Shown piece after piece: positions 1-16,486 of a stretch of 18,742 bases of DNA. Both the position numbers and the translations under genes were made by a program. The notes under the pieces are model-generated. The model saw nothing but the letters and a program-made list of their open reading frames with translations. It ran no database searches and had not been told where the DNA came from. Source of the DNA: an archaeon (GTDB lineage Archaea > Iainarchaeota > Iainarchaeia > Iainarchaeales > Iainarchaeaceae); the NCBI GenBank assembly GCA_038046625.1, contig JBBSVV010000031.1, forward strand, positions 1 through 18,742. Direction: 5' to 3'. How positions within the stretch are numbered: the first letter of the stretch is position 1; the number at the start of each line of letters is the position of its first letter.

Positions 1-3000
1 CAAATTGCTACTGTTTGCCATATCGCAGATGCGCCTTCTGTACCATTAGCCTGAACGTATAGAGCAGTGTTCATGTCATAAATGGCAAATTGTGTTGCTG
101 CTGGATTTCCATTTACATTAACGGTTACATTGAGCGTAGTATCAGCTGGAGTTCCCGTGGCAACTGTTGGAGCCGATGGAACGTTTGCGAGGGTGAATTT
201 ACAAATGCTTGATGTTGCCGAGGAATTGTTGTCCGCGTTGTCCGTTGCAAGCACAGTGAAGCAATAATACCCGTTCAAATCAAGGCTACTGAAACTGGTT
301 GTTGTTGCGCCTGCAACGACCTTGTCTTTCGCATCAGTGCCGCCGGCCGTGCACAGTGTGCCGATAACACAGTTCACGAAGTACTGCTTCAAACCGGAAG
401 AAACAGTTGCTGAAGAAATTTCCTGCACTTTCACATTATCTATCCACGCACTCCCGTTCGGCGAGCCGGCTCCAAAGGCACGCAATTCAAGCGAGGTTGC
501 ATTTGAAGGCACTTTCACAACTTCAGAATAATAAGTCCAAGGAGTTGTTCCAGACACTACAATTCCGCCAGTGTCAATTGTTCCAGATTGGAAAAGGTCA
601 ATGTTTACTTGCCCTGCTGTCAAGGCTGTTTTCATCCAGCCTGAAAGCAAGACTGTTTTTCCAGCCAGTGTGTTTCCAAAACTCTGCGAACGGCCGAATG
701 CCACAGTACCGCCATTTCCATTAAGCTTTAGCGAATACGTTCCCAAGTAAGCATCGTCGCTTGCCTGGCTTGTTCCGGTTGTGGTTGCCACCGCATTGGC
801 CCAGTCAATCAAGAAGTCATCTTCAAAACCAAAGCTTTTCACTAAATTGCTCTCGTTCCCGAAGCTGTCGAAAGCGGTAACCGTGTAGTTATAGTCATTT
901 CCGGAATCAGTTGAGGCGTTCCAGGCCACATTCAAAGTGGTGGTGGCAGGGCTGATGACTCCTGGATTTGGTGGGGTTGAGGGGGCTGTAGAATCTATGG
1001 CATTAGTGTCCGCGAAAGTGTTTGCATCAAGCAACGGAGTGATTTTCAAGTTGTCGACATACCAAGTCGTGTCGACAGTGCTGTAGCCAGCATTTGCAAA
1101 CCAGAGTTTCTTCAGGCCGGTTGTCCCGCTGTCAGTGTAAACAGTTCCTCCCACATTCACGTCATTAATGTAAACTGTGGTCTTCTTGTTGTATTGGTCA
1201 AATATTATTTTCATGTGGTATGTCTGGCCAATGGTAAGGGCTTTTGCGGTGACATATGCTGAACCGTTATAAATTTGATAATTTTCGTTATTGATTCTGG
1301 ACCAGAGGGAGGTATTGAAATCTGAGCTGATAGTCGAAGCAGAGCTTCCAGCCACAAACATGAAATCCCACCCAGTAGAGTCCGCAATATTCACATCAAA
1401 CTCCACTATTGCGTTGCCTTTTATTTCATTGGTTAAAGTAAACAACGCGTAATCTTGGGTACCGTCAGGCGCCGCAGCCGGATGGTACATTCTCAACTTG
1501 TTCTCCGCAATCGTGTAGGTTGAGCCATCAGCAACACCTTTTGTCCAGCCGCTGATGCTTGTGATGTCGGTTCCGTTTGCCGCGGTAAATGGCTGGAAGG
1601 TCCCGTTCATAGGATTCCAAGAGCCTCCGTTGTCCGCGCTTTTCTCCAAGCCGTATTTTCTCGCGCCGATGTGGTAAAGCGTGTTCACGTCGGTTGCGCT
1701 CAAAACCCTGTTGAAGACCGCAACCTCGTCAATCTGCCCATTGAAATAATACGCGGAGTTGGATTCTTTTCCGATGTTGAGCGACAGGCTTCCGGTAGTT
1801 ATGTCGGTTGTGAGTGCATTCGAGCCAATGAGGCTGCCGTCATCCCAATAAAGTTTTGAGCCCGCGGTTGAGCTCACCGTTGCCGTAACCATGTGCCAGC
1901 CGCTCGCAATTCCGGGTGCGGTTGCCGTAATATCGTAAGTCCCGACATTGGCGCCCCGCCTCGCCACCATGTATAGTTGCGACGCCGAAGGGTAACCCCA
2001 GATTATGTCGGCTCCGTAGAGGCCGGCGCTTCCGTCGGCGGCCCCGAAAGGCCTGTTCCCTATTCCGGAAGCCGAGGATTTTGCCCAAAAAGTGTACGAA
2101 AAATTCGTGGTCGGGAGAACATAAGTTGTCTGCACATAATTGCTGCTTCCGTTAAAGCTGAGCGCTTTCCCGATTTTTCCGTTCACATAAGCCGGAGAAC
2201 TTACCAAAGTCCCGTTTTTGTCTTGCTCGCTTGAGTCATAAGCTATTGTCCCCGAACCTTCCTCGAAGCGCCAGTAGCCAAGCATGTTCGGGGCAATGAA
2301 GGTTGTGTAGCTCGAGTTGTCATCAGAAGCGAGCCAGTTCAGGTCAGCATGCGCCAAAGAGCTTGATGCATTTCCGACGCTTGCCGTGAAGCTTGTGGGA
2401 ACCGAAGGGCCGGAACGGTCGTAAATCAATACAACCTTTTCGCCTGAATTGACAGAGCCCCCGCTTCCTTTAGTGGCAACCCGGTACCAGTAAGTAGAGT
2501 TATCGGCAATATCGCTGCCGGTATATGTAATGGTGTTCGCCGCCACCGAACTCAAAGTGCCCCAATTCGTTCCCGAATCGTTGCTGCGCTGCACGTCATA
2601 GCCTGTTTCCTCGTTTGCGTCTGTCCAGCCAAGAGTTACAGCTCCACGGGTTGAGTTAAGGGGATAAGATGTGGAAGTGGTCGCGGTCACAGTGCCGGGG
2701 GCGTTTGAAACATAAACAACAACAAGGACCGGCCAGAGGGACGCACCTGCTTCGTAGGCGTCCGCTTCGGCCCAATTGGCGCCGTTAACCGGTTCGGTGC
2801 TTTTCCTTATGCCTACATTAAAATACGCACCTGAAGAGAGCTGGTTGAACAGGTTCGTGGCCGCAGTTGAACCAAGGTCGCATGTCTTGTACGCCCCGGT
2901 CGGAAGAGCAGTGAAACAGGAGGTCGTTGTATAGATTTGTGCTCCGGGGCCAATTGCATTGTAAAGGATTGTGGGATCATCAGCACAATTATTGATTGCA

Positions 3001-4940
3001 TTATTCAAATCACGGACCTCATCAGTATAATCCGTGCCGGTAACAGTGGCATTGTAGAGCTTCAGGCTAACACTGGCAATCGGGGAACCAGCGGTAATTC
3101 CTGCTGTGGAGAAATTGAGCCAACTTCTGTATATTGTATTTACTGTGACAAAAGAATTTCCACGAAAAAATGAAGAGTTAAGGTTCCTGCAGGTGCCTAC
3201 ACCGGTTTCGAGATAAACATCCCCGTCATTGGCGCCCGCTGAAATAGTTATGTTTGTTGTCGGGTCAATCCTGACCGGGTAAACCCTGCTCCCATTGTCC
3301 AGCCAAGAATAAGGGATATTAGTGTAAAGGAAAACTTTGCCGCCCTGCTTTTCAATTGTGTAAGTCAGGCTTATTTCAAAGTTATTGCCGGACGGGTTTC
3401 CGGGGGCAAGCTCATTTGCCCTGTCGCTTGAAATGGCCCTTGCAACAGGGATGAACAGCTGCGCCGTCCCGCTTGCATCCCTTAGCTCGAGGTGCTGTGA
3501 AGTGGTTATGGTTGAGCCATCATAAGGCGAACCGTTTACATAAAGTGTCAGGTTATCCGGAATGCCAAGCTCTTCCTTGAACTTCAACATTAATGAACCG
3601 GAACCGGAATTTGGCGCAGGCAAAGAACCCCTGGAGTTTATTGTAAGTGTCTTTTGCAGGCCATCGAAACTATAGGCATACTCAAGGTCAATGCCGCCGG
3701 AGAAAACGTCCGCAAACTTTGACCTGTTCCTGAACACCGAATTGCTGCCCGGTTTTGTGGCAATTTTTCCAATATCCTGCACATTGCCGTTTCCATCATC
3801 ATACAAAAGCCCGCTGACGCTGAAGCTTAGTGTAAAGTCGCCCTTGTCAACCCTTACCGCATCAGGCTGTGAAAGGCTGTTTTTCCAGTACGCATTAAAT
3901 GCCCCCTGCTCTGCCTCATAATCATAATCCGCCCTTGCCTGCAATTTCTGCTTGAGCTTAACATCATTTTCCGCATTGGCTTTGGCGAGTTTACCGGCCT
4001 TGTCCAACGCTTTTATTCCCCTGTCAATTTTTTTGATGGAACCATTTTCATCGGCGTAATTGACCGGGGCCCCATAAATATAAGCGGTTCTATTGTCGCC
4101 GTCACAGTAAATGTTGGCGTTATCCTTCCTGTCGCATGGCTGCTCCCCCGGCCTCTCAATCTCATCAATAGTTTTGGTGTCAAATTCGGTTACATTGACA
4201 TCGATGGTTTTGCCATTGCCCGTGACAACTTTTATGGTTCCGGAGCCAGTGACTCCGGTTCCAGGGGAAACATTCTGGTCTGACGGGGGCTGTGAAACGG
4301 CACACTGCCCGTTCGAACAAATTTTTCCATTTGGATTGAAAGTTGAGTCACTCACGCCATCACAGGATTTTCCCTCGTTCAGCGCGGAACAAGCTATTTC
4401 AATCGCGCCGCATGCCTCGGGCTTTGATTCGTTGCCTGAGGAGCAGTACTCCGTGTAACACCGTTTGTCAAGGCAGACCCCATTGTATGAAACCCCTCCG
4501 GAAGAATTCGTTCCGCATGATGCCCCGTCTCCGCACGCATTGCATCCCGCAAAAGGCTTTGCAAGGACCGGATGTTCACAAACCGTTGATTCCTGGCATA
4601 TTTTATCATAAGTGCATACTCCGTCGGCGGTGTACGGGTTTACCGCATCATCGCTGCAAAGCTCGCCCGCGTTCGAGGCAGAACAGCTTCCGCACGCGCC
4701 ATTAACGCACACCAGCTTCGCTCCGCAATCAGCGGCAGTCGAACAACTCTCGCCCGCAAAAAGCGCGACCTGTTCCTGTGCGGCATCAGTATTTTTTGCG
4801 GCCCCAAAAACCTGCGCAAAAGAGGAAAGAACCGCAAAATCCGGGAAAACAGGCTGGCTCTGGAGGGTTCCAAAGGCTGCAAGAATAAGCAAAACGGCTA
4901 ACGCTGCTGCCGCTGTAAAAGCGAAACGTGGAAGCCCCAT
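1..4940 (-). CDS. Giant secreted multidomain surface/adhesin protein (>1,646 aa, 3' end outside window): signal peptide, Cys-rich region, PVNY...YPVRIDPT domain, DNRLRE-like domain, FN3 domains, LamG domain, two lectin/CBM-like beta-sandwiches
   Basis: Manual translation from ATG 4940 (MGLPRFAFTAAAALAVLLILAAFG) stays open to the window edge. Motifs: LamG GYWRFEEGSG...GKALSFNG...GWHMVTAT...FNGQIDEVAVFNRVLS; FN3 LGWTDANEETGYDVQRS...YWYRVAT; CBM4/9-like FGFE...AYLGTYSLKL...LSGWMKT...WIDNVKV. Absent from the ORF track because there is no stop codon in the window. Confidence 0.93.
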   Translation of the reverse strand, partial: MGLPRFAFTAAAALAVLLILAAFGTLQSQPVFPDFAVLSSFAQVFGAAKNTDAAQEQVALFAGESCSTAADCGAKLVCVNGACGSCSASNAGELCSDDAVNPYTADGVCTYDKICQESTVCEHPVLAKPFAGCNACGDGASCGTNSSGGVSYNGVCLDKRCYTEYCSSGNESKPEACGAIEIACSALNEGKSCDGVSDSTFNPNGKICSNGQCAVSQPPSDQNVSPGTGVTGSGTIKVVTGNGKTIDVNVTEFDTKTIDEIERPGEQPCDRKDNANIYCDGDNRTAYIYGAPVNYADENGSIKKIDRGIKALDKAGKLAKANAENDVKLKQKLQARADYDYEAEQGAFNAYWKNSLSQPDAVRVDKGDFTLSFSVSGLLYDDGNGNVQDIGKIATKPGSNSVFRNRSKFADVFSGGIDLEYAYSFDGLQKTLTINSRGSLPAPNSGSGSLMLKFKEELGIPDNLTLYVNGSPYDGSTITTSQHLELRDASGTAQLFIPVARAISSDRANELAPGNPSGNNFEISLTYTIEKQGGKVFLYTNIPYSWLDNGSRVYPVRIDPTTNITISAGANDGDVYLETGVGTCRNLNSSFFRGNSFVTVNTIYRSWLNFSTAGITAGSPIASVSLKLYNATVTGTDYTDEVRDLNNAINNCADDPTILYNAIGPGAQIYTTTSCFTALPTGAYKTCDLGSTAATNLFNQLSSGAYFNVGIRKSTEPVNGANWAEADAYEAGASLWPVLVVVYVSNAPGTVTATTSTSYPLNSTRGAVTLGWTDANEETGYDVQRSNDSGTNWGTLSSVAANTITYTGSDIADNSTYWYRVATKGSGGSVNSGEKVVLIYDRSGPSVPTSFTASVGNASSSLAHADLNWLASDDNSSYTTFIAPNMLGYWRFEEGSGTIAYDSSEQDKNGTLVSSPAYVNGKIGKALSFNGSSNYVQTTYVLPTTNFSYTFWAKSSASGIGNRPFGAADGSAGLYGADIIWGYPSASQLYMVARRGANVGTYDITATAPGIASGWHMVTATVSSTAGSKLYWDDGSLIGSNALTTDITTGSLSLNIGKESNSAYYFNGQIDEVAVFNRVLSATDVNTLYHIGARKYGLEKSADNGGSWNPMNGTFQPFTAANGTDITSISGWTKGVADGSTYTIAENKLRMYHPAAAPDGTQDYALFTLTNEIKGNAIVEFDVNIADSTGWDFMFVAGSSASTISSDFNTSLWSRINNENYQIYNGSAYVTAKALTIGQTYHMKIIFDQYNKKTTVYINDVNVGGTVYTDSGTTGLKKLWFANAGYSTVDTTWYVDNLKITPLLDANTFADTNAIDSTAPSTPPNPGVISPATTTLNVAWNASTDSGNDYNYTVTAFDSFGNESNLVKSFGFEDDFLIDWANAVATTTGTSQASDDAYLGTYSLKLNGNGGTVAFGRSQSFGNTLAGKTVLLSGWMKTALTAGQVNIDLFQSGTIDTGGIVVSGTTPWTYYSEVVKVPSNATSLELRAFGAGSPNGSAWIDNVKVQEISSATVSSGLKQYFVNCVIGTLCTAGGTDAKDKVVAGATTTSFSSLDLNGYYCFTVLATDNADNNSSATSSICKFTLANVPSAPTVATGTPADTTLNVTVNVNGNPAATQFAIYDMNTALYVQANGTEGASAIWQTVAI

Positions 4941-4995: not shown

Positions 4996-5266
4996 GGCCG
5001 AGAGAAACCTCACAGCCTTCAGGCCATAGGTGAATCGAGGCCGTCGTGAAGGCGTTGTTAACCCTTTTAAATTCAAACTACAGAATTTTCTTTTATTAGC
5101 CACTTTTGCAGGCCGTATTTTTCAATTTTTACTTCGCCTATTGTTTCAGTCTCTTTTTTTCCTTTGCACAAAATTGTTGCTTTGGTTATTTTTTTTTTTT
5201 TTTGCAGAATTCAATCAGACCCCCGGTTTCTCTTTTTGGCGGGGTTTACCCCCCGAGCGGATGTCA
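4996..5266 (+). mobile_element. Decayed non-autonomous IS200/IS605-family derivative (left-end-like and right-end-like hairpins, no transposase)
   Basis: 4996-5042 GGCCGAGAGAAACCTCACAGCC-TTCA-GGCCATAGGTGAATCGAGGCC resembles archaeal IS605/IS1341 left ends. 5235-5266 TTTGG(C)GGGG-TTTA-CCCCCCGAG then CGGATGTCAC resembles a right end finishing in TCAC. The interior is T-rich and non-coding (T15 at 5189-5203). Confidence 0.5.
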
Positions 5267-5276
5267 CGCTACGGCA

Positions 5277-5576
5277 TTATTTTGCTATTATTTTTATTCC
5301 TTCTTTTTCCGGCAACAGGGAAACATCCTCATTCACTTTGAGGTTGTATTTTTTCGTGAGTTCTTTTGGTATCCTGAGACCCATGCTTTCCCCCCACTTA
5401 GAGAGCCTTGCCGTGTATTTTTTCATTTTCCTGTACTTGTCTGCTACGCTGTGGAGCTGCTTCATGTCAACTATTTCCTCGCCGCACTCCTTGCATTGGT
5501 AATAATTGTATTCAACGCCTTCAGGCGTGGTTCCTTTTTTTTGAATCATTTTTCCAGTGCATTTCACGCAATTCAT
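5277..5576 (-). CDS. Antitoxin: YgiT/MqsA-type zinc ribbon fused to an AbrB/MazE DNA-binding domain
   Basis: MNCVKC...YQCKECGEE (two CxxC) plus LSKWGESMGLRIPKEL...LKVNEDV (AbrB/MazE signature). ATGA overlap with the upstream gene. Confidence 0.88.
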   Translation of the reverse strand: MNCVKCTGKMIQKKGTTPEGVEYNYYQCKECGEEIVDMKQLHSVADKYRKMKKYTARLSKWGESMGLRIPKELTKKYNLKVNEDVSLLPEKEGIKIIAK

Positions 5577-5809
5577 TTTCCATGCCTCCTTGCTATGGTG
5601 ATTATTTTTATTGTGTCGCCGATTATTTCATCAACGCAAATTATGCTGCCATTCCTGAGTGTTTTCTCGAACCTTACCATGTTCTTGCCAAACCTCTTCA
5701 TTGTGCCTGTTTGCAGGGTTTCCTCAATCAGGTCTGGATGAACGCCCCTCTGCATAGCCCTGATGAGCGCGTGCCTCATTATCACAATCCTGTACTTTCC
5801 CTTCTGCAA
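5573..5809 (-). CDS. DUF4258-like (RelE-like fold) putative toxin
   Basis: IVIMRHALIRAMQRGVHPDLIEETL...IKIITI matches the DUF4258 pattern HA..RM..RGI. 78 aa, basic, translationally coupled to a zinc-ribbon gene. TTG start. Confidence 0.82.
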   Translation of the reverse strand: MQKGKYRIVIMRHALIRAMQRGVHPDLIEETLQTGTMKRFGKNMVRFEKTLRNGSIICVDEIIGDTIKIITIARRHGK

Positions 5810-5949
5810 ACAACCACATACAAAAATGGCGCACTAATAATATTTAAAGATATCTAATGATATTAATCGAAAAGGTGGTGTTAAATTTACCGCCACCTAC
5901 TATCTAAGCATGAGTGGTGTTAAAAATCAAAAATATGAACACCTCAAAA

Positions 5950-5981
5950 AAATCCCCCGCCTTTAGGCGTGGGTGATTCAC
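5950..5981 (+). mobile_element. IS200/IS605-type right-end hairpin (orphan)
   Basis: AAAT-CCCCCGCC-TTTA-GGCGTGGG-TGATTCAC: an imperfect subterminal palindrome followed by a TCAC terminus. Confidence 0.72.
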
Positions 5982-6174
5982 CAGCAAGAAAATGCGGTTT
6001 ATGTTCATTTGTTCAAACCGTTGCTTCGGCCCGCGGTGCCCAGAGAAACCGCGCCGTTTTTTTGCCATTGCAATTTTTCCGGGCCCACAAAGCGCCGGCT
6101 ACATAATGCGCGTTTTCCATGCCTGCGCAAAAACCGCGTTATACATAAAAGTTTTTTCCGCATTTTTTTTGCTG
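5982..6174. repeat. 193-bp segment bounded by imperfect inverted repeats with three internal hairpins
   Basis: CAGCAAGAAAATGCGG (5982-5997) vs CCGCATTTTTTTTGCTG (6158-6174); TTTATGT (5998-6004) vs ACATAAA (6143-6149). Inner stems at 6027-6056, 6079-6098 and 6107-6129. Confidence 0.55.
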
Positions 6175-6293
6175 CGAAGCAAACCCACCGCCAACGGAAT
6201 TCCAACGGGGGATTGGGTTGCCGCGAAGTGAATTACCCGCGCCCAAAGGCACGGGCTTCCCGTCAACGGAACCCCCTACACGGGGGTGGGTTG
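6169..6293 (+). repeat. Diverged tandem duplication; second copy contains the IS605-type end
   Basis: Copy 1 (6169-6217): TTGCTGCGAAG...CCGCCAACGGAA...ACGGGGGATTGGG. Copy 2 (6218-6290): TTGCCGCGAAG...CCGTCAACGGAA...ACGGGGGTGGG. Both are followed by TTG. Confidence 0.6.
6228..6259 (-). mobile_element. IS200/IS605-type right-end hairpin (orphan, inverted relative to 5950-5981)
   Basis: Minus strand reads GAAG-CCCGTGCC-TTTG-GGCGCGGG-TAATTCAC; 25 of 32 nt identical to the 5950-5981 copy. Confidence 0.75.
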
Positions 6294-6302
6294 TGTGATT
6301 CC

Positions 6303-7318: not shown

Positions 7319-7723
7319 TCAAGCTTCTTCGAGCCGAATGATTCTTGGCACCGAGTCAAAATCCCTGTCAAAGGAATAAATTTCCTTTATGCCCAAATCA
7401 AGCATTAATGCTACAGTAGTGCAGTCGGTAAAGCTGAGTTTCCCGTATTTTTTGAAGATTTCAAAAGCAACCGCCAGGTGTTTCTGCTCGATTTTCAGCT
7501 GCGTGATTTCAGAATCGAGGATTTCTTCCAGAATGTTTTTTGAGGCTTCTGTGCCTTTTTTTGCCCTTGCCAAAGTAAGCAGTTCGTCCAAAATATAGTC
7601 AGAATAAACAACGTTTTTTGCATTGCCATCAGTTATTGCTTCAACTATTTTTTTGGCTTTTGCGTGGTGTTTTTCGTCCGGAAAAAATGCCGCGAGCAAA
7701 GTAACCGTGTCAATGAACTGCAT
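7319..7723 (-). CDS. vapC: PIN-domain VapC-family toxin
   Basis: FIDT...ILDELLT...LSFTDC...IYSFDRDFD, with the acidic PIN residues intact. ATG 7723 overlaps the upstream stop (TGATG). Confidence 0.93.
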   Translation of the reverse strand: MQFIDTVTLLAAFFPDEKHHAKAKKIVEAITDGNAKNVVYSDYILDELLTLARAKKGTEASKNILEEILDSEITQLKIEQKHLAVAFEIFKKYGKLSFTDCTTVALMLDLGIKEIYSFDRDFDSVPRIIRLEEA

Positions 7724-7959
7724 CAATCAAAACCCGATACAATCAAGTCATGCTCTTCAACAGCGTCAAATTTCTTCCCGACCTTAAACTTTCCAACAAG
7801 ATTTTTCAAAGAGCCCTTCCTTTTAGGCCTCAGAATGATTTCCTTATCCAAATCAATCACCCGGATTTCCTGTCCGGGACGCAACCCGTGCTTGCGCCTG
7901 CTCTTCGCCTGAAGAGTGAACTGATACCCCTTGGACAACTTAACATCATACACATCCAT
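7723..7959 (-). CDS. AbrB/MazE-family antitoxin (VapB role)
   Basis: VKLSKGYQFTLQAKSRRKHGLRPGQEIRV...IILRP. GGTGG motif 6 nt before ATG 7959. Lies directly upstream of vapC. Confidence 0.9.
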   Translation of the reverse strand: MDVYDVKLSKGYQFTLQAKSRRKHGLRPGQEIRVIDLDKEIILRPKRKGSLKNLVGKFKVGKKFDAVEEHDLIVSGFD

Positions 7960-8046: not shown

Positions 8047-8922
8047 TCATTCGAACTGCTCGTAGTTCGCGCTGTTGAACCTGTACAAAAACCGCCTTAT
8101 ACGGGCGCCATTGCAGGAATATTTTTCGAGCACGCCCTTTTTTTCCCCGAGAAAATCACGGAACCCGCAACCCGGGCAGGGGTCAAGCAGCAAAAATTTC
8201 CCGAAAAATTCCGTGATTGCAAAAGCGTGGCTCGAGGCGCTCTCCATTTCCGCAATAACGACCTCGGCCTTTTCATCGCCAAGGGCATAGAGCAGCGAAC
8301 ACAAAAGAACCGCGCGGTCCTCGTCATCGCCGATTTTTTCGGAAATTATTTCCTTCGGCGAAAGCCAGAAAGAAATCCCCAAATCGGCCTTCACCAATGC
8401 TATTTCGTCGCGCACGTAATTGAACGCCTTTTCCGCGGCCCGCGCATAATGGTTTTCAAACACGTAATCCTCAGGCCCGAACAACTGGATAAGCGACTGT
8501 ATGTTGAGGTCGTCCCTTGTGACAAGGGCCTTTATCTCCCCTACTGTTTTGCGTTCGTTCTCGCTTATGAGTTTCGCGTACTTCCTGAACAATAATTCGT
8601 AAAGCTTCATCGAGGCCGCGTCATTCAAGCCGGATTCGCGCTGCTCCTTTGCCAAAACAGACCTTAATTGCGAAGCCTGCCTCTTGAGTTCCGCATTCTC
8701 GAGCTTCAATGACGTGTAGCTTTCGCCTGAAAGCCTGTCCAAAAGGGATTTAAGCTCGTCAAGCTGCGCCTTGAATTCACGTTTTTTTTCACGGTCCTTC
8801 TCATGGGAAAAGGCCGATTCGAGCGCGTGGATATTCCTGAGCAAAACCTTTTCGGCAGAAGTCCTCTTGAGTTCCGTGGCCTCCGAAGCTCCAAACACCA
8901 TACAAACTATACATAATTTCAT
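8047..8922 (-). CDS. Coiled-coil plus transglutaminase-like domain protein, catalytic Cys replaced by Asp
   Basis: Charged helical N-half, then AFNYVRDEI...FWLSPKEII...GDDEDRAVLLCSLL...HAF...FLLLDP. The true start may be ATG 8901. Confidence 0.8.
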   Translation of the reverse strand: MKLCIVCMVFGASEATELKRTSAEKVLLRNIHALESAFSHEKDREKKREFKAQLDELKSLLDRLSGESYTSLKLENAELKRQASQLRSVLAKEQRESGLNDAASMKLYELLFRKYAKLISENERKTVGEIKALVTRDDLNIQSLIQLFGPEDYVFENHYARAAEKAFNYVRDEIALVKADLGISFWLSPKEIISEKIGDDEDRAVLLCSLLYALGDEKAEVVIAEMESASSHAFAITEFFGKFLLLDPCPGCGFRDFLGEKKGVLEKYSCNGARIRRFLYRFNSANYEQFE

Positions 8923-8993
8923 TGAAAACCGCTAAAAACCTTTCCAAAACCCCGAAAACCCTTATACATAACTGTTTTTTGTGTTTCACAACC

Positions 8994-9016
8994 TTTAAAA
9001 ATATAGCCCGCTATAT
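8994..9016 (+). promoter_or_regulatory. TATA box and adjacent palindromic operator of the RHH-MazF pair
   Basis: TTTAAAAA (8994-9001) followed by a perfect inverted repeat ATATAGC-CC-GCTATAT (9001-9016), just before ATG 9024. Confidence 0.6.
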
Positions 9017-9023
9017 ATGCTGT

Positions 9024-9239
9024 ATGTCCACACTTAGTGCAGATGTGACCACAGAAATGGAAAAATGGGTAGATGGCAAGGTAAAGTCAGGACTCTATAA
9101 AAGCAGGAGCGAGGTCATAAGGGAACTCCTTCGCGAAAAAATGAGCCAGAACAAGTATGCCAAGGCTGCCCTGTCACAGAAGGCTCTTGAAAAAATCTGG
9201 GGAAATGACGAAGACGAAATCTGGAAAACCTACTTGTGA
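9024..9239 (+). CDS. Ribbon-helix-helix (CopG/ParD-like) antitoxin
   Basis: MSTLSADVTTEMEKWVDGKVKSGLYKSRSEVIRELLRE; C-terminal ALEKIWGNDEDEIW. Start reassigned from TTG 8922 to ATG 9024. Confidence 0.88.
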   Translation: MSTLSADVTTEMEKWVDGKVKSGLYKSRSEVIRELLREKMSQNKYAKAALSQKALEKIWGNDEDEIWKTYL

Positions 9240-9245
9240 CCGCAA

Positions 9246-9572
9246 ATGGACCAGCTTACAGTCGCCTTGGCAAGATTCCCTTTTACAAACCAGATTGACT
9301 ACAAAATACGGCCCGCACTAATCATTTCGAATGAGCGTTTCAACAAAACACATGCCTTTTACTGGACGTGCCCCCTGACAACCAAGACAACCCTAAAAGA
9401 ATTCGAACTTGAAATGGCTGAAAAGGATTTTTCAGGCGAACTCAAAACAAAAAGCTTTGTGAGGACGGACACAATCGCCTCAATGGAAAAAGGGCTGTTC
9501 CTCAAGGAGATTGGAAAGGTCACGCCGCAATTCTTTGAGAAAATAAAAAACGAAGTAACGAAAAACCTGTGA
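9246..9572 (+). CDS. mazF: MazF/PemK-family endoribonuclease toxin
   Basis: ARFPFTN...KIRPALIISN...CPLTT...SFVRTD...IGKV, the PemK signature. Confidence 0.92.
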   Translation: MDQLTVALARFPFTNQIDYKIRPALIISNERFNKTHAFYWTCPLTTKTTLKEFELEMAEKDFSGELKTKSFVRTDTIASMEKGLFLKEIGKVTPQFFEKIKNEVTKNL

Positions 9573-10398: not shown

Positions 10399-10809
10399 AT
10401 GGCGAAGCGAAATGCGCAGGTTTCAGTGGAATACGTCGTCCTCACGGCTTTCCTCCTCCTTGTTACGGGAATTTTCTTCGGTTTTGCCCTGTTCTTCTTC
10501 AACGAGAACTCTGCAACCGCGCACGCACAGGACGCGGTAATAACATTCGTGAACGAGGCCGACCGCGCGGCCTCATACGGCGATGGCAGCAAGGTCTTCT
10601 TCACTGTGTACGTGCCTTTTGACGTGCAATCGCTAAGTGCCGGGAGAAAAACCATAAGCATGGTGATTTCGAATGCGGGCGGCTCAATGGACGTAATCGG
10701 CTACACCAAGGCAAACATCACTCCCGCTGCATTCAACCCCGCGAGCGGGCGCCGCTCGTTCTCCGCGGAATTCATTGACGGAAACGTACTGGTGGAAGAA
10801 CTTGCCTAA
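10399..10809 (+). CDS. Type IV pilin-like protein, class III signal peptide
   Basis: MAKRNA|QVSVEYVVLTAFLLLV: basic leader, Q+1, E+5, hydrophobic helix. Start reassigned to ATG 10399, with TTTTTATT about 30 nt upstream. Confidence 0.88.
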   Translation: MAKRNAQVSVEYVVLTAFLLLVTGIFFGFALFFFNENSATAHAQDAVITFVNEADRAASYGDGSKVFFTVYVPFDVQSLSAGRKTISMVISNAGGSMDVIGYTKANITPAAFNPASGRRSFSAEFIDGNVLVEELA

Positions 10810-11161
10810 AGCACAGGTTTCCCTGGAAGTTTTGGTTGCGGTAACAATCCTGCTCTTCACATTCATACTCATGCTGGTATTCGCAAACACCCAGCAGCAG
10901 GAAGCCGAGGCATTGCGCGCGCAGCTCCTCGAGAAAAACGACTGCGTCTCGCTCCAAAGCGCGATAAGCCTCGTGAATTCCGTTCCCGAAAACTCGCGCA
11001 CCCAAACAACGATTTTTTACGACGCAAACATCGGGAAAAACACGATAAGCCTTGCGGACTATTTCTGCACCTTTTCCGGGCAGGAAATCACGGCACAGCT
11101 TTTGCGCGGGGACGTGCTGGTAAAAAAAGAAGGGGGCATTGTTAGTGTCCGGAATATTTAA
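10802..11161 (+). CDS. Type IV pilin-like protein, class III signal peptide
   Basis: MPKA|QVSLEVLVAVTILLF. TTG 10802 is preceded by GGTGGA and overlaps the upstream stop. Confidence 0.87.
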   Translation: MPKAQVSLEVLVAVTILLFTFILMLVFANTQQQEAEALRAQLLEKNDCVSLQSAISLVNSVPENSRTQTTIFYDANIGKNTISLADYFCTFSGQEITAQLLRGDVLVKKEGGIVSVRNI

Positions 11162-11645
11162 CCAAAAAGGCCAAGCCGTTCTCCTTGATTTCGCCATGGC
11201 GCTTTTCCTTTTCATGATCATGTGGATATTCATCACCTCGGAATTCAATGTGCGCGAAGCCGAAGCCATCCGCGCAAACGATTTCGGCACAATGAGGGCG
11301 CGCGCCGATTACCTGCTCGAAGGGCTCGTGAAAACCAGGGGCATTCCGGAAAACTGGGAAACACTCACACTTGAAGACGCAAGCTCTTTTGGCCTAGCAA
11401 AAACCGACCGCGCCCTTTCAGAGGCAAAGCTCGCGGCATTCTCAAATTTTTCCTCGGACTACGAAGGGCTCAGGGAGAGGCTTCCGCTCGAGGAATACGA
11501 TTTTTTCTTCGAATTCAGCGGCATTGATGATGTGAATGTGGGCCTCGAGCCACAGGGAAACGCAGACAAAGTGGTTGTGCAGAGAATAGTGACTTACAAG
11601 GGAGGTGTCGGCATTGCAAAGCTCACGCTCTACAAGTTCGCCTGA
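11139..11645 (+). CDS. Minor pilin-like protein, class III signal peptide
   Basis: NQKG|QAVLLDFAMALFLFMIMWIF; LVKTRGIPENWE motif of archaeal minor pilin-like proteins. Start is TTG 11139 or GTG 11145. Confidence 0.85.
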   Translation: MLVSGIFNQKGQAVLLDFAMALFLFMIMWIFITSEFNVREAEAIRANDFGTMRARADYLLEGLVKTRGIPENWETLTLEDASSFGLAKTDRALSEAKLAAFSNFSSDYEGLRERLPLEEYDFFFEFSGIDDVNVGLEPQGNADKVVVQRIVTYKGGVGIAKLTLYKFA

Positions 11646-14406
11646 TTCGTTCTTCCTGAAATGCGCCTCCGGGACTCCGGGAGTAGCGCAGAAAGGATTC
11701 GTGTTCACGCTCGACTCCATAATAGCTGTCGCGCTCGTTGCCAGCGCGCTCTTCCTTCTCGCTGCTTTCCAGGGCAATTCCCCGCCGACAACACTCCAGA
11801 CCACAAGCATTGCGCAGGACGCATTTTTTTCGCTTGAGGAAACGGGCTTCATGATACAGACACTTGACTCGAACACAATGGTTCAGTCTGCCTCAACAAT
11901 AAGAAGTGCGCTGCTCTCATACCTCCCCAAAGGCTTTGACGCTAACGTAATTGTTTCGAGCTACATATTCGATTCGGGGGCTTGCGCCTTGGCACAGACA
12001 TTCAATGCGTGCTTCCCGGATTCGAACAAGCTCTCGGGCTCATCAGGAACCGTGGCTTCGGGCTCTTTCGCAACCGGAAGGAAATATTTTCTCAGGAAGC
12101 AGCCTCCCGGCGACTGCAACATTTCCTACGCGCAGTTCTCCGAACCAGAAAGCATAATCAACTGGCTCGTGCCGAAAAAAAATGCGGACGCGCTTTTCTC
12201 CGAGGCTTACTTCGCGGCACAGGACGCAAACGTAATATTTGACGTGAATGTGATGCCAAGCAGCTCAATAGTCTGCGACGGCAATGTCACGGTCACATTG
12301 AGCATCACTGTCCCCCAAAGCGTGAGGAAGCCGATTGACCTTGCGCTCGTGCTTGACAGGTCCGGTTCCATGAGCTGGAGCGGAAGGGTTGACACAAGCG
12401 ATGCGAGAGCGGTTTTCCTTGACGGGAGCAATGCTTACCTTGCCGATGGCAGCGGCGGAATAAGGAGCATAGGCATTTCCAACCCGCTTCTCCCCTCGCT
12501 TATTGGCCGGTATGACCCCGGCACAATAATTGATGTGCATGGCGAACCCGGAAACAGCCACGTTTTCATACTCGACACCTCCGACACGGATGAACTGATT
12601 TCAATCAACCGGAGCAACCCAAGCAATCTTACAGAATCAGGCCAGGTGAACTTTGATTTGGTTGTAGGCCTTTACGTTGCGGGAGGCTATGCTTATGTTG
12701 CCGGCGAAGCCGCAAACAGGGCCGATTCAGGCCTCGTAATAATGAACGTTTCCAATCCGGGCAACATGGCTGAAGTGAGGCGCGTCGACACCACAAACCC
12801 CCGCGGAGTTTTCGTTGACGGAAATTATGCTTACCTTGCGGACGGCAGCGCCGGCCTGAGGGTAATCAACGTTACAAACAAGGCAACCGCCTCTGTTGTC
12901 GGAACATACAATACTGCCGGAACCGCAGAAAATGTTTTCGTTTCCGGAAGCTATGCGTATGTTGCGGACGGCGCCAATGGCCTGGTCATTGTGAACGTTT
13001 CCAATCCAAGCGCACCCTCATTCGTCAGTTCCTACAATACTCCAGGGTACGCGTATAATGTGGAGGTTGCCGGGAACTACGCATACGTTGCGGACAACAC
13101 CGGCATCCAAATACTTGACGTTTCAAACCCAAACTCGATTTCTTTCTACAAGAGCTACGCAACGCCTTACACTTACAGGGACATCGACGTGAACAATGGC
13201 TATGCATACCTTCCTGCGGGTTCCATTGGGTTAATCACCGTAAAACTGGATGTAGGCCCGAGAATCAACGAAGCCAAAAACTCGGCGCAGAATTTTGTCG
13301 ACTTCAACGGCTGGACCTTTCCGCCGGACCAAATGGCGGTTGTTTCATTCAGCGACTCCGCAACAACAAACCAGCAGCTCACATCAACAGTTTCAATCGT
13401 CAAAACAGCCATAAACTCGCTGGTTGCCAGCGGCGGCACAAACATAGGCAGCGGAATCAGCGCTGCCACAACCGAGTTGAACAGCGTTCGCCATAACCCT
13501 AACGCGCTGAAATTCCAGGTCCTTTTAAGTGACGGACAGTCGAATTCCGGTGATTCAGCAACTGCAGCGCAAACAGCCGCGGCCAGTGGCATAATAATTT
13601 TCACAATCGGATTCGGAGCCGACGCGGATGAGGCCGAACTCACGAACATAGCCAACATCACCGACGGCAATTATTACTTTGCCAGCGACGAGAATGCGCT
13701 GCAGGCCGTGTTCGCGCTCATAGCAAAAAAAGTCGGCGAACTCGCGAACGACTCCAATGTTTCAGTGCCTGTGATAAGCGGCGCCATACTGGTTGATTCA
13801 GGCGGCGGCACTTTGATTGACGGGAACCTCATTTTTGATTCCGGCTCAATAACTCCGGACACGCCATGGACCGCCACTTACCTGATAAATTTCCCATGCT
13901 CTAACGCTTTGGTCTGCAGTGCCGACGCATTCAGCTTTCCCGGGCCGGGAACAAAATTCAATTACACTGATTCCGACGGCAACTTCCACTCTGTTGATTT
14001 CAACTCCTCGGTAACGCTTTCATTCGAGAAGCGAGACCTTGCTGTTGACATTACAGGCGGCGAAGTGCTCGGAAAGAACGACGTTTCCCTGGATGTGCTG
14101 GTGCAGAACACAGGTGATTTGGATGCTGACGCAACAACGATGCGCTTTTACCTGGGAAGCGCACAGGGAGCCCCGCTCGGCAATTACGTTGTCCCGGCCC
14201 TGTGTTCCGCACAGACGCCAAGCTGCACAGCATCCTCGCAGTCTTACTTATCGGTTCCGATTCCAGCCGAAGGCGTCATTTATTCCGTGATAAACGATTC
14301 GAACACGATAAGCGAGTGCCCCATAGGCAACATTGACGCAATCAACTGTTCAGGCGGGCCCGAAACACAGGTGTTCGTGGTCCGGTACACAATATGGAGG
14401 CCATAA
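11614..14406 (+). CDS. Large pilin-like adhesin: class III signal peptide, Ig-like domain, VWA domain with a 7-repeat LVIVD insertion, CARDB-like domain
   Basis: AQKG|FVFTLDSIIAVALV; MIDAS motif DLALVLDRSGSM...GGTNIG...LLSDG; seven (Y)AYVADG..GL.I.NVSNP-type repeats; DLAV...VLVQNTG...TMRFY. Start is uncertain: TTG 11614 follows GGAGGTG, the ORF track uses GTG 11605. Confidence 0.9.
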   Translation: MQSSRSTSSPDSFFLKCASGTPGVAQKGFVFTLDSIIAVALVASALFLLAAFQGNSPPTTLQTTSIAQDAFFSLEETGFMIQTLDSNTMVQSASTIRSALLSYLPKGFDANVIVSSYIFDSGACALAQTFNACFPDSNKLSGSSGTVASGSFATGRKYFLRKQPPGDCNISYAQFSEPESIINWLVPKKNADALFSEAYFAAQDANVIFDVNVMPSSSIVCDGNVTVTLSITVPQSVRKPIDLALVLDRSGSMSWSGRVDTSDARAVFLDGSNAYLADGSGGIRSIGISNPLLPSLIGRYDPGTIIDVHGEPGNSHVFILDTSDTDELISINRSNPSNLTESGQVNFDLVVGLYVAGGYAYVAGEAANRADSGLVIMNVSNPGNMAEVRRVDTTNPRGVFVDGNYAYLADGSAGLRVINVTNKATASVVGTYNTAGTAENVFVSGSYAYVADGANGLVIVNVSNPSAPSFVSSYNTPGYAYNVEVAGNYAYVADNTGIQILDVSNPNSISFYKSYATPYTYRDIDVNNGYAYLPAGSIGLITVKLDVGPRINEAKNSAQNFVDFNGWTFPPDQMAVVSFSDSATTNQQLTSTVSIVKTAINSLVASGGTNIGSGISAATTELNSVRHNPNALKFQVLLSDGQSNSGDSATAAQTAAASGIIIFTIGFGADADEAELTNIANITDGNYYFASDENALQAVFALIAKKVGELANDSNVSVPVISGAILVDSGGGTLIDGNLIFDSGSITPDTPWTATYLINFPCSNALVCSADAFSFPGPGTKFNYTDSDGNFHSVDFNSSVTLSFEKRDLAVDITGGEVLGKNDVSLDVLVQNTGDLDADATTMRFYLGSAQGAPLGNYVVPALCSAQTPSCTASSQSYLSVPIPAEGVIYSVINDSNTISECPIGNIDAINCSGGPETQVFVVRYTIWRP

Positions 14407-14408
14407 AA

Positions 14409-15365
14409 ATGAACATGCAAAAAGGGGTTTTCTTCACGCTAATGGTTTTCCTGCTGCTGATGCCGCTGCTCGCGCTCCACACGGCCACAAAATTACAGGG
14501 GTCCTCGCTCTCAACAGCCATTGCGGAAGCGGACGCATTCCGCGCGGTTTCAGACAAGTACTCAAACATACGCCGAAACGCCTCCGTGCTCGGCACCAAC
14601 ACAGCGGAGAGCGGCATTGACATGAGGATACTCCCTTTCACGTACTCCGTTGACGCGAATTCCTTTTCGCTTTCAACCAAGCTCCCTGTGAGGCAGGCCG
14701 ACGTTGATTCCTACCTTGGCATAATCAACGGCTTCAGGGTTTTTCTCGAGGACACAAACTATGTGAACGAATTCGATTCACTCAGAACCGACATAAACAC
14801 CCTCACCCCAGCCGAATGGGGCGGCACCGATACGGACGTTTCTTTCGTGCTCAGGCCGCAATGCGTGAAGTACTCCATACTTGACTCGAACACCATTTCC
14901 TTTGATTCGGGGAATTATTGTGCAGACTACAATTACTCCTCAATGCGCAAACAGGGCATAACAATCTCGCTTTCAAGCACGCATGACTTCAACGCGCTTT
15001 CATGCTCCTTCAACGGAACAAGCACCTGTTTCGCGGATCCCTTCAACCCCGCAAACCCACTGCCTTACATAAATGTGGCGCTACTTGATGCGAACTGCTC
15101 CAAATGCGCGCTCCCGCAGAAAACCATCAGCGGGCACTTCGACCCCGCGCAGGCAAGCGCCATGACCCTGAGCTGCTCCGGCACAGGATGCGTTACCCCG
15201 GCACTGCAAATGGATTTCACAGGAAAAACAACCCTGGCTTTTTCCGGCCAGCGCCTTGACATAACCTATGTTACCGGCTTTCCAAATGACATAGATGAGT
15301 TCGCGTTCAGCGACATAAACTTTTCAGTAGAAAACACTTACTTCAATGCAAAGCGGTGGGGCTGA
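14409..15365 (+). CDS. Pilin-like secreted protein, class III signal peptide, Cys-containing
   Basis: MNMQKG|VFFTLMVFLLLMPLLAL. GGAGG at 14396-14400 favours ATG 14409. Confidence 0.85.
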   Translation: MNMQKGVFFTLMVFLLLMPLLALHTATKLQGSSLSTAIAEADAFRAVSDKYSNIRRNASVLGTNTAESGIDMRILPFTYSVDANSFSLSTKLPVRQADVDSYLGIINGFRVFLEDTNYVNEFDSLRTDINTLTPAEWGGTDTDVSFVLRPQCVKYSILDSNTISFDSGNYCADYNYSSMRKQGITISLSSTHDFNALSCSFNGTSTCFADPFNPANPLPYINVALLDANCSKCALPQKTISGHFDPAQASAMTLSCSGTGCVTPALQMDFTGKTTLAFSGQRLDITYVTGFPNDIDEFAFSDINFSVENTYFNAKRWG

Positions 15366-16486
15366 TGGATTACAAGGCAACAGCCCTCATTGCCGCAACC
15401 CTCATTATTTTCTCCGCCGCATATTACTCAGTGGTTTCGGAACCAAAAAGCATGGTTCTCGCGGTTTCTGTGCAGGGCAAGGAGCATTATTCGTCGCAGC
15501 CAATTGAAGTTTCAGTGAGCGCAACCGGAACGCAACTGCGGCAGCTGACGCTCGAGCTCGGCACAGAGAAAAAAACATTCGAGTGCGGAAACAAAAACGA
15601 GTGTTCCGCCAGCGCAACCTTTTCCCCCGGCGCGGGAGTTTACCAGTTAATTGCGGCGGCAACAAACTCAACCGGCAAAAATGCCGAACAGAAGCAGAGG
15701 CTGGTTGTTTCGCAGATAAAGGAATCCTGCGTAAACGGAATACCTTTCTCGGGCTGCGCGCCCGAAAAGCCGCTCTACTGCAACAATGGAATCCTCGAAA
15801 ACAACTGCGGACAATGCGGATGCAGCGGGGGCTATTACTGCTCCGCGGGAATTTGCGCTGCAGAGGCTGCGGCACTTTCGCTCAAGGAAATAATTTACCC
15901 TGAAAAAGTGCAGTCCGGAAAAAAATTTTCGGTAAAGGTTGTGGCGCAGGCGGCTTCGGATTCCGCGCAGGGCGCGAAATATGTGCTTGAGCTGAAGCTC
16001 GGCAAAAACGATGTTTCCGCGGAATTCTCAATGGGGCAACTGGATGCGGGCGAAGAAACAACGATGGAGATTCCGGGAATAACACTTGAGGACGGCACCT
16101 ACGACCTCAATGCGAGTGTATTCTCCCTCAACGCGGAGAAAGCGCAGGTGATTTCATTCTACAGGGAAAATGCCGTTTCCGCGCTTACAGATGCGGACCC
16201 GCCGCAGGCGCCCCAAATAACGGGCATTTTTGTTGAAGGAATGGACGCCGTAATTTCATGGAGCAACGTTGGCGAGGCGTCCACCTACAATGTTTACAAG
16301 AGCTTTGACGCAAACCCCGCATTCATTTCCTACAGGCTCGAAAAAACATTTGACGGCACATCAACTTCCGGCGTGATACAAGGCCTCGGAAAAGGCGCGC
16401 ACTTTTTTGTCGTAACCGCCGTTGACGCGTTCGGCAACGAGAGCCGGTACAGCAACGTGGAAAGCGTTTCCGTGGGCGCACCATAA
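15365..16486 (+). CDS. Membrane-anchored/secreted protein with Ig-like, Cys-rich and C-terminal FN3 domains
   Basis: N-terminal hydrophobic segment; CVNG...C...KPLYC..G.LENNCGQCGC....C...IC; FN3 DPPQAP...ISWS...YNVYKS...FVVTAVDAFGNES. TGATG coupling to the upstream gene. Confidence 0.85.
   Translation: MDYKATALIAATLIIFSAAYYSVVSEPKSMVLAVSVQGKEHYSSQPIEVSVSATGTQLRQLTLELGTEKKTFECGNKNECSASATFSPGAGVYQLIAAATNSTGKNAEQKQRLVVSQIKESCVNGIPFSGCAPEKPLYCNNGILENNCGQCGCSGGYYCSAGICAAEAAALSLKEIIYPEKVQSGKKFSVKVVAQAASDSAQGAKYVLELKLGKNDVSAEFSMGQLDAGEETTMEIPGITLEDGTYDLNASVFSLNAEKAQVISFYRENAVSALTDADPPQAPQITGIFVEGMDAVISWSNVGEASTYNVYKSFDANPAFISYRLEKTFDGTSTSGVIQGLGKGAHFFVVTAVDAFGNESRYSNVESVSVGAP

Follow-up and report, generated by a model that had tools for sequence, protein, structure and literature searches.

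We describe a short sequence signature, Asp-x-Asn (D-x-N, where x is any residue), in surface proteins encoded by an 18,742-nucleotide stretch of DNA from a DPANN archaeon of the Iainarchaeota (assembly GCA_038046625.1, contig JBBSVV010000031.1), here called the window, which includes a pilus locus. Judged from sequence counts, D-x-N is a genuine short linear motif under strong selection, and only some exported proteins have it. Its carriers are a pilus adhesin, pilin-like proteins, giant surface proteins and S-layer proteins, and they are found in Iainarchaeota and, by record label, in Micrarchaeota. We tentatively suggest, at somewhat less than an even chance, that the motif may be a determinant of Asn modification, namely N-glycosylation.

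The window genes were translated, their Pfam families were assigned, expected counts of D-x-N were calculated from composition, and 2000 shuffles were made. The seven exported window proteins (Table 1) together contained 49 D-x-N against 15.6 expected (observed/expected ratio, O/E, 3.15), and the region 10399..16486 alone held 30 against 7.6. For the three large proteins, none of the 2000 shuffles reached the observed count. When the residues were shuffled in blocks of 10, 20 or 40, the mean was 16.3–17.0 (standard deviation about 3.7) and the maximum in 2000 was 32. Because block shuffles yield only about 17 occurrences, composition, whether global or local, does not account for the signal. 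Clustering of Asp with Asn over short stretches is excluded for the same reason and because the remaining gaps were flat: in the pooled window set, Asp-to-Asn pairs at gaps 1 and 3–6, including D-N and DxxN, had O/E values of 0.5–1.2. A first-pass annotation of this DNA had counted the motif by hand, and the recount gave exactly the same values: 17 of the 61 Asp of the adhesin and 8 of the 23 of the 323-aa pilin-like protein stand in D-x-N, the giant protein has 19, and agreement extended to the small pilins, the FN3 protein, PfkB and the 464-aa protein (zero in both), and VapC and the ATPase fragment (one each). That annotation had allowed that the enrichment could vanish after correction for composition, and it survived both global and local shuffles. 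Its estimate that about a third of the sites have Ser or Thr two residues after Asn was also right (16 of 49, 33%; the other 33 have neither).

The excess was strict in both residue identity and spacing. In the pooled window set the reversed pair NxD had an O/E of 0.45 and ExN of 0.69, and over the window and orthologue sets the two ranged over 0.45–0.73 and 0.49–0.80. SxN, TxN, NxN and GxN reached at most 1.03, and DxD was unenriched (0.57–0.97). DxG was depleted in the clade (0.5–0.7) and stood at 0.79 in outgroup proteins with LVIVD repeats, which excludes Asn standing in for Gly at turns. In each carrier family, D-x-N was the strongest of 400 residue pairs.

The 986-kb source assembly was then considered as a whole. 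A simple codon-usage model gave 958 open reading frames (ORFs), which were sorted by hydrophobic segments; the sorting is crude and the start codons are uncertain. Cytoplasmic proteins were at chance (302 D-x-N against 318 expected, O/E 0.95). Among the 26 proteins of surface-like composition, 116 were found against 59.1 (O/E 1.96; 72 against 45 when the window contig was left out), and D-x-N was the top outlier among all 400 residue pairs at gap 2. Individually, 6 of these 26 proteins were enriched at a Poisson p-value < 0.01, compared with 1 of 646 cytoplasmic proteins. Carriers outside the window include the S-layer protein (PF05124), with 13 against 5.8, an Ig-domain protein of 541 aa, with 13 against 3.0, and a protein of 456 aa that belongs to no Pfam family, with 10 against 2.0. 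No significant mutual similarity was detected among the D-x-N-rich proteins, save in FN3- or Cys-rich pieces, which excludes one shared repeat domain as the source. All N-anchored proteins together had 186 against 149.8; without the window contig they were near chance (138 against 134.5), and therefore the motif does not mark every exported protein.

Orthologues at 25–65% identity hold D-x-N in the same alignment columns. For the 323-aa protein, 27 homologues (25–55% identity) had 264 D-x-N against 47.9 expected (O/E 5.5), and ten columns of the family alignment carried the motif in 14–26 of 28 sequences. This uncharacterised family was found in 94 of the 201 genomes of the phylum and is small, with 162 representatives in a set of 1.84 billion clustered proteins; its members share a KG|VFFTL-type leader, six invariant Cys and an N-terminal helix of 60 residues. 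The family is assigned to Iainarchaeota in the Atlas, and the record label of the adhesin relatives is Candidatus Iainarchaeum. Full-length adhesin orthologues (36 sequences) had 719 D-x-N against 197.8 (O/E 3.64), and 22 partial relatives had 406 against 122; in sixteen columns at least half of 38 relatives carried the motif. The 32 orthologues of the S-layer protein had 372 against 161.9 (O/E 2.3), and their canonical NxS/T sequons were at about 1.0.

The folds of the carrier proteins do not depend on the motif. The search that yielded the adhesin orthologues also returned 62 LVIVD-repeat surface proteins of other organisms, and these had 222 D-x-N against 251 expected (O/E 0.88), compared with 3.64 in the orthologues. 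Likewise, distant members of the 323-aa family had O/E values of 1.3–1.6, compared with about 5 in close ones. Thus, the enrichment is not equally strong in homologous domains elsewhere; equal strength there is what the first-pass annotation had named as fatal to its idea. At the D-x-N columns, distant relatives of the 323-aa protein had GxN, GxD, ExG, ExE, DxD or ExT, NxD was also seen among relatives, and Gly rarely replaced Asn. Related pilus loci were fetched with the alignment of these distant members; their record labels are Iainarchaeum, Micrarchaeota and several others that are apparently mis-binned. The loci hold two paralogues of the 323-aa family, a D-x-N-rich one at the start of the locus and a D-x-N-poor one after the adhesin, and the first-gene paralogue has the motif where the 323-aa family has it (7 against 1.7 and 9 against 2.1).

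Three further genomes were sampled. In 400 kb of a genome from another family (G001), the surface-like proteins had 129 D-x-N against 53.1 (O/E 2.43) and the cytoplasmic proteins were at 1.06. In 637 kb of a genome labelled Micrarchaeota (G201), the values were 198 against 102.9 (1.92) and 0.88. In 400 kb of a genome from a further family of the phylum (G006), single proteins stood out within a surface-like set of 44 against 44.8, and the cytoplasmic O/E was 0.91. The first-pass view that the motif is enriched in exported proteins only is right for the cytoplasmic side, with values of 0.88–1.06 in four genomes, and too broad on the other, because only a subset of exported proteins is enriched. 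The most extreme carrier was a 1154-aa surface protein of G201 made of three beta-rich repeats of about 280 residues, in which 57 of 79 Asp (72%) stand in the motif. D-x-N also recurred in low-complexity repeats, namely an acidic tandem repeat of the PDVNETEDEN type in G001 and C-terminal DENIV-like pentads in G006. For the loops of multi-pass membrane proteins, placed by a crude positive-inside topology, the source genome had 22 against 14.1 outside and 11 against 13.6 inside, and the trend in G001 was opposite.

We suggest that D-x-N may be read as a linear signal, because it is enriched in exported proteins only, is strict in residue and spacing, is absent from homologous folds elsewhere, occurs in unrelated folds, contexts and repeats, excludes Pro and is linked to Ser or Thr at +2 (positions are counted from Asn unless stated otherwise). 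The signal would be read on the unfolded, just-exported chain and would mark Asn for modification, most likely N-glycosylation by the AglB oligosaccharyltransferase of the clade. Modification would depend chiefly on Asp at −2, Ser or Thr at +2 would enhance it and would not be obligatory, and the glycans would coat the pilus, the adhesins and the S-layer. Archaeal AglB uses N-X-S/T and Campylobacter PglB needs D/E-X-N-X-S/T, and S-layer proteins, pilins and adhesins are the usual archaeal glycoproteins.

Several traits of the motif resemble the PglB sequon, in which Asp or Glu stands two residues before Asn; of these two, Asp is strongly enriched here and Glu is depleted. Pro was almost excluded at both X positions: it followed the Asn of D-x-N in 1 of 719, 0 of 272 and 5 of 493 cases, compared with 10.7%, 5.8% and 3.5% of other Asn, and it occupied x in 9 of 719, 2 of 272 and 2 of 493, well under the values for other Asn. 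Beta structure would yield the same depletion. Ser or Thr stood at +2 of 28–35% of D-x-N Asn in the orthologue sets, against a background level of 13–19% at Asn without the preceding Asp. Seen from the other side, Asp was found at −2 of 18.0%, 22.9% and 14.5% of canonical sequon Asn, compared with 10.0%, 14.5% and 10.2% of other Asn, in the surface sets of the source genome, G001 and G201. The difference was non-significant in the surface set of G006 (8.8% against 5.0%, p = 0.09). No cytoplasmic set showed this link, and in that of G006 it was reversed. Compared with the canonical archaeal code, the conserved residue at −2 is a difference, and canonical sequons themselves were hardly enriched in the surface-like set of the source genome (207 against 186.6, O/E 1.11).

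A candidate enzyme is present. The AglB/STT3 gene (PF02516) was found on C43 of the source genome (minus strand, 552-2537 of its locus) and in all five further genomes checked. The protein has EFD and WWDEG motifs, and its best matches among solved structures are eukaryotic STT3A (1e-17) and not archaeal AglB. Within the clade, WWDEG stands in place of WWDYG in 81 of the 114 motifs found. The motif of external loop 5 (EL5) is [ST][VI]GEE, and the candidate enzyme is an archaeal AglB of the T/S-V-G-E type. All 120 AglBs compared, which are clade sequences only, have Lys at position +11 from the catalytic Glu; position +12 is Tyr or Phe. According to one study (PMC7226087), R331 of PglB binds the acid at −2 and lies 12 residues after E319, and yeast Stt3 has D362 there. 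The first-pass annotation had looked to AglB for changes in its motifs and for a basic residue equivalent to R331; WWD is retained and a basic residue is present, at +11 and not +12. The equivalence of this Lys to R331 is a lead only, because the EL5 loop could not be aligned to a solved oligosaccharyltransferase (a phmmer search of the EL5 region against the PDB gave a chance match only) and because the compared AglBs are all from the clade. The full proposal, that Iainarchaeota and Micrarchaeota would N-glycosylate or otherwise modify Asn in a minimal, hitherto undescribed Asp-X-Asn acceptor whose −2 Asp is read by the conserved AglB Lys, with Ser or Thr at +2 optional, and would thus have a glycosylation code of their own, seems to us rather unlikely on present sequence evidence. 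A micrarchaeon S-layer homologue is reported as glycosylated, with about 30 kDa of extra mass and a positive periodic acid–Schiff stain, in a preprint (bioRxiv 10.1101/2021.04.28.441871).

Several results weigh against modification. WWD is retained in all six aligned AglBs; in solved oligosaccharyltransferases it binds the Ser or Thr at +2, so its retention makes it less likely that the need for a +2 residue was simply lost. To our knowledge, no AglB has been shown to dispense with this residue, and about two thirds of D-x-N sites lack it. Glu is depleted at −2, although PglB accepts Glu. The motif is limited to a subset of exported proteins: other large surface proteins of the source genome were at or below chance (2 against 5.9, 1 against 3.4 and 0 against 2.2), the exported domain of AglB itself was unenriched (1 against 0.9), the family represented by G006 had no overall surface excess, and the large adhesins of the related pilus loci were also unenriched (4 against 7.8, 5 against 9.0, 2 against 5.5 and 1 against 5.1). 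The density in the 1154-aa protein is extreme, with 57 sites in about 830 residues, some of them 6–8 residues apart. The orthologue counts are not independent events, and therefore their Fisher values are overstated. In the three orthologue sets, the 10, 16 and 8 columns with at least 50% D-x-N hold most of the excess, and sporadic sites were near chance (O/E 1.57, 1.39 and 1.05); this means less turnover than a floating sequon should show. Sequences lacking a conserved site had D-x-N within 8 columns in 11–38% of cases, compared with 1–8% otherwise, and alignment slippage would give the same result. The first-pass suggestion that this lineage may mark its surface proteins by D-X-N alone, via an oligosaccharyltransferase of altered specificity or another system that modifies Asn, is supported in part: the excess in an exported subset survives the tests of composition and of homologues, while the retained WWD and the many sites without a +2 hydroxy residue tell against glycosylation of every site by AglB.

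The low turnover would be explained by a structural role, in which Asp(i) and Asn(i+2) lie on the same side, at the boundaries of strands and helices or on exposed faces of strands, and form hydrogen bonds with each other or across strands or chelate Ca2+ or Mg2+, stiffening beta-rich surface proteins and making lattice contacts without any enzyme. We regard this as doubtful and still a serious possibility. It accounts for the deep positional conservation, for the occurrence of the motif in some families only, for the 57 sites in the beta-rich triple repeat and for the frequent acid pairs (ExE, DxD), along with NxD, in relatives at the same columns, as expected of a cation site; these pairs are a further point against modification. 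Predicted structures are also consistent with it. The AlphaFold2 (AF2) model of the 323-aa protein (predicted local distance difference test, pLDDT, 89.7) has an N-terminal helix of 60 residues, like that of type IV pilins, and a head rich in beta structure; searching with its fold gave no PDB match at E ≤ 0.001, and the structure rows of the Atlas were all below a template-modelling (TM) score of 0.3. The adhesin model had a pLDDT of 84.7. On the DSSP strings of the AF2 models, 25 window sites fell on two- or three-residue hairpin turns, strand interiors, strand ends or starts, and helix N- or C-caps, most of them predicted to be at strand or helix boundaries. Positions −1, x and +1 of the motif were hydrophobic in 43–54% of sites, against a background of 33–37%; this would place Asp and Asn on the side that faces away from the core, and it fits strands alternating in and out. 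Pairs of D-x-N 6–8 residues apart were in modest excess (11 against 4.2 and 11 against 5.9). Paired hairpin motifs are excluded as the main source, since only about 11 of about 100 gaps were of this length.

However, an intrinsically good cap or clamp should be enriched everywhere, and the structural role does not account for values at or below chance in the 62 LVIVD proteins and in the cytoplasm or for the same fold occurring without the motif. DxD, at least as good for Ca2+, was not favoured, Gly seldom replaced Asn and DxG was depleted. The contexts were heterogeneous, including predicted strand interiors and low-complexity repeats. Asx-turn and beta-turn caps, type I turns included, are found universally and accept Asn, Ser, Thr or Gly. 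Many D-x-N sites resemble them in predicted position, lying on hairpin turns or where a strand or helix begins or ends; here only D...N was enriched, and only in certain exported families of two DPANN groups. A generic preference of this kind is at odds with the LVIVD outgroup, with the unenriched SxN, TxN, NxN and DxG and with the varied contexts. In EF-hand-like loops (D-x-[DN]-x-[DN]-G) and cadherins (DxNDN), Asp and Asn two apart can chelate one Ca2+. The continuation of these motifs was lacking: the residue after Asn was mainly V, I, G or A (Y, C, I or T in the 323-aa family; overall mainly V, I, Y and T), position +4 from Asp was mainly T, S, L or W and position +5 mainly F, V, Y or I, with Asp and Gly not among the enriched residues. 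Thus, an EF-hand-like or DxDxDG calcium loop is excluded, having neither Asp or Asn at +4 nor Gly at +5, and so is a cadherin DxNDN linker, since Asp-Asn does not come right after D-x-N.

It is improbable that D-x-N has no single function and that old lineage-restricted families merely inherited many copies, which purifying selection preserves. The concentration of the excess in conserved columns of a handful of families would agree with this, and a few occurrences are clearly ancestral, among them the stretch DFNHPLAG in an FKBP-domain lipoprotein (FKBP_C match), presumably a general FKBP motif. However, inheritance leaves unexplained how each family got 3–7 times the expected number, when at least six carriers have no detectable mutual similarity, D-x-N leads the 400 pairs in each family, and the motif recurs in independent low-complexity repeats and in a genome labelled as another phylum.

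More improbable still is other chemistry at Asn or Asp, either by an exported enzyme reading D-x-N (deamidation, another sugar transferase or a cross-link) or by spontaneous Asp-assisted reaction of Asn: it would fit the restriction to exported proteins, the strict identity of both residues and the many contexts, has no conflict with the retained WWD and finds a possible lead in a transglutaminase-like window protein (Table 1), but no candidate enzyme was identified, we know of no precedent, and the 323-aa family has no invariant Lys or other partner residue fitting an isopeptide cross-link, its invariant residues being Gly, Arg, Pro, Trp and the six Cys.

Full-text searches of the literature, with supplements outside their scope, found nothing that describes an Asp-X-Asn motif on the surface proteins of archaea. 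Should D-x-N prove to be modified, archaea would for the first time have an N-glycosylation code set by the −2 residue and able to skip the +2 hydroxy residue; glycosite prediction in DPANN archaea would change, and the finding would bear on substrate choice in the STT3 family. A structural role would mean that exposed beta-rich surface proteins are built here in a way restricted to the lineage, useful for protein design and for modelling DPANN surfaces. Either way, it provides a simple signature for the surface proteins that these host-dependent archaea invest in, and it names particular residues on which glycoproteomic or cryo-EM studies can focus. Ca. Micrarchaeum harzensis, which has a glycosylated S-layer according to the preprint cited above, is already available in co-culture.

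Table 1. Coordinates of the window genes under study and of three features in the sampled genomes (D-x-N: observed; Exp.: expected from composition).
Feature	Position	Strand	D-x-N	Exp.	Remarks
Giant exported protein	3..4940	minus	19	8.0	1646 aa visible, open at window edge; Laminin_G_3 (PF13385)
PIN/VapC-like gene	7319-7726	minus			putative, from its translation; between PfkB and pilus operon
291-aa protein	8047-8922	minus	1		N-terminal hydrophobic stretch, coiled-coil-like middle, transglutaminase-like / CEP76-peptidase-like domain
Small pilin-like protein 1	10399..10809	+	1 (DGN)		class III signal-peptide match PF04021 below cut-off; D-x-N near C-terminus
Small pilin-like protein 2	10775..11161	+	1 (DAN)		
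Small pilin-like protein 3	11139..11645	+	1 (DVN)		
Pilin-like VWA + LVIVD-propeller adhesin	11605..14406	+	17	4.5	933 aa; 61 Asp
323-aa pilin-like protein	14394..15365	+	8	1.56	uncharacterised family; 23 Asp, Asn 22/323
Exported FN3/Ig-like protein	15356..16486	+	2	0.57	376 aa; alone not significant
1154-aa surface protein, G201	C16:10133-13597		57	8.1	
Acidic tandem repeat, G001	C1:603378-604676				PDVNETEDEN type
C-terminal pentads, G006	C1:34891-35724				DENIV-like

The 291-aa protein adjoins the pilus locus, and its D-x-N was absent from the list of the first-pass annotation. Between PfkB and the pilus operon there are also two small ORFs (8922-9239 and 9246-9572), which from their translations, read by eye, we take to be a ribbon-helix-helix antitoxin and a MazF/PemK-type toxin. 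Upstream of the giant gene, positions 5000-6300 form a low-GC stretch (0.41) without a convincing ORF. In three of the four LVIVD repeats of the adhesin that were read by eye (GLVIMNVSNP, GLRVINVTNK and GLVIVNVSNP), Asn replaces the name-giving Asp, and canonical N-V-S or N-V-T sequons are thereby created.

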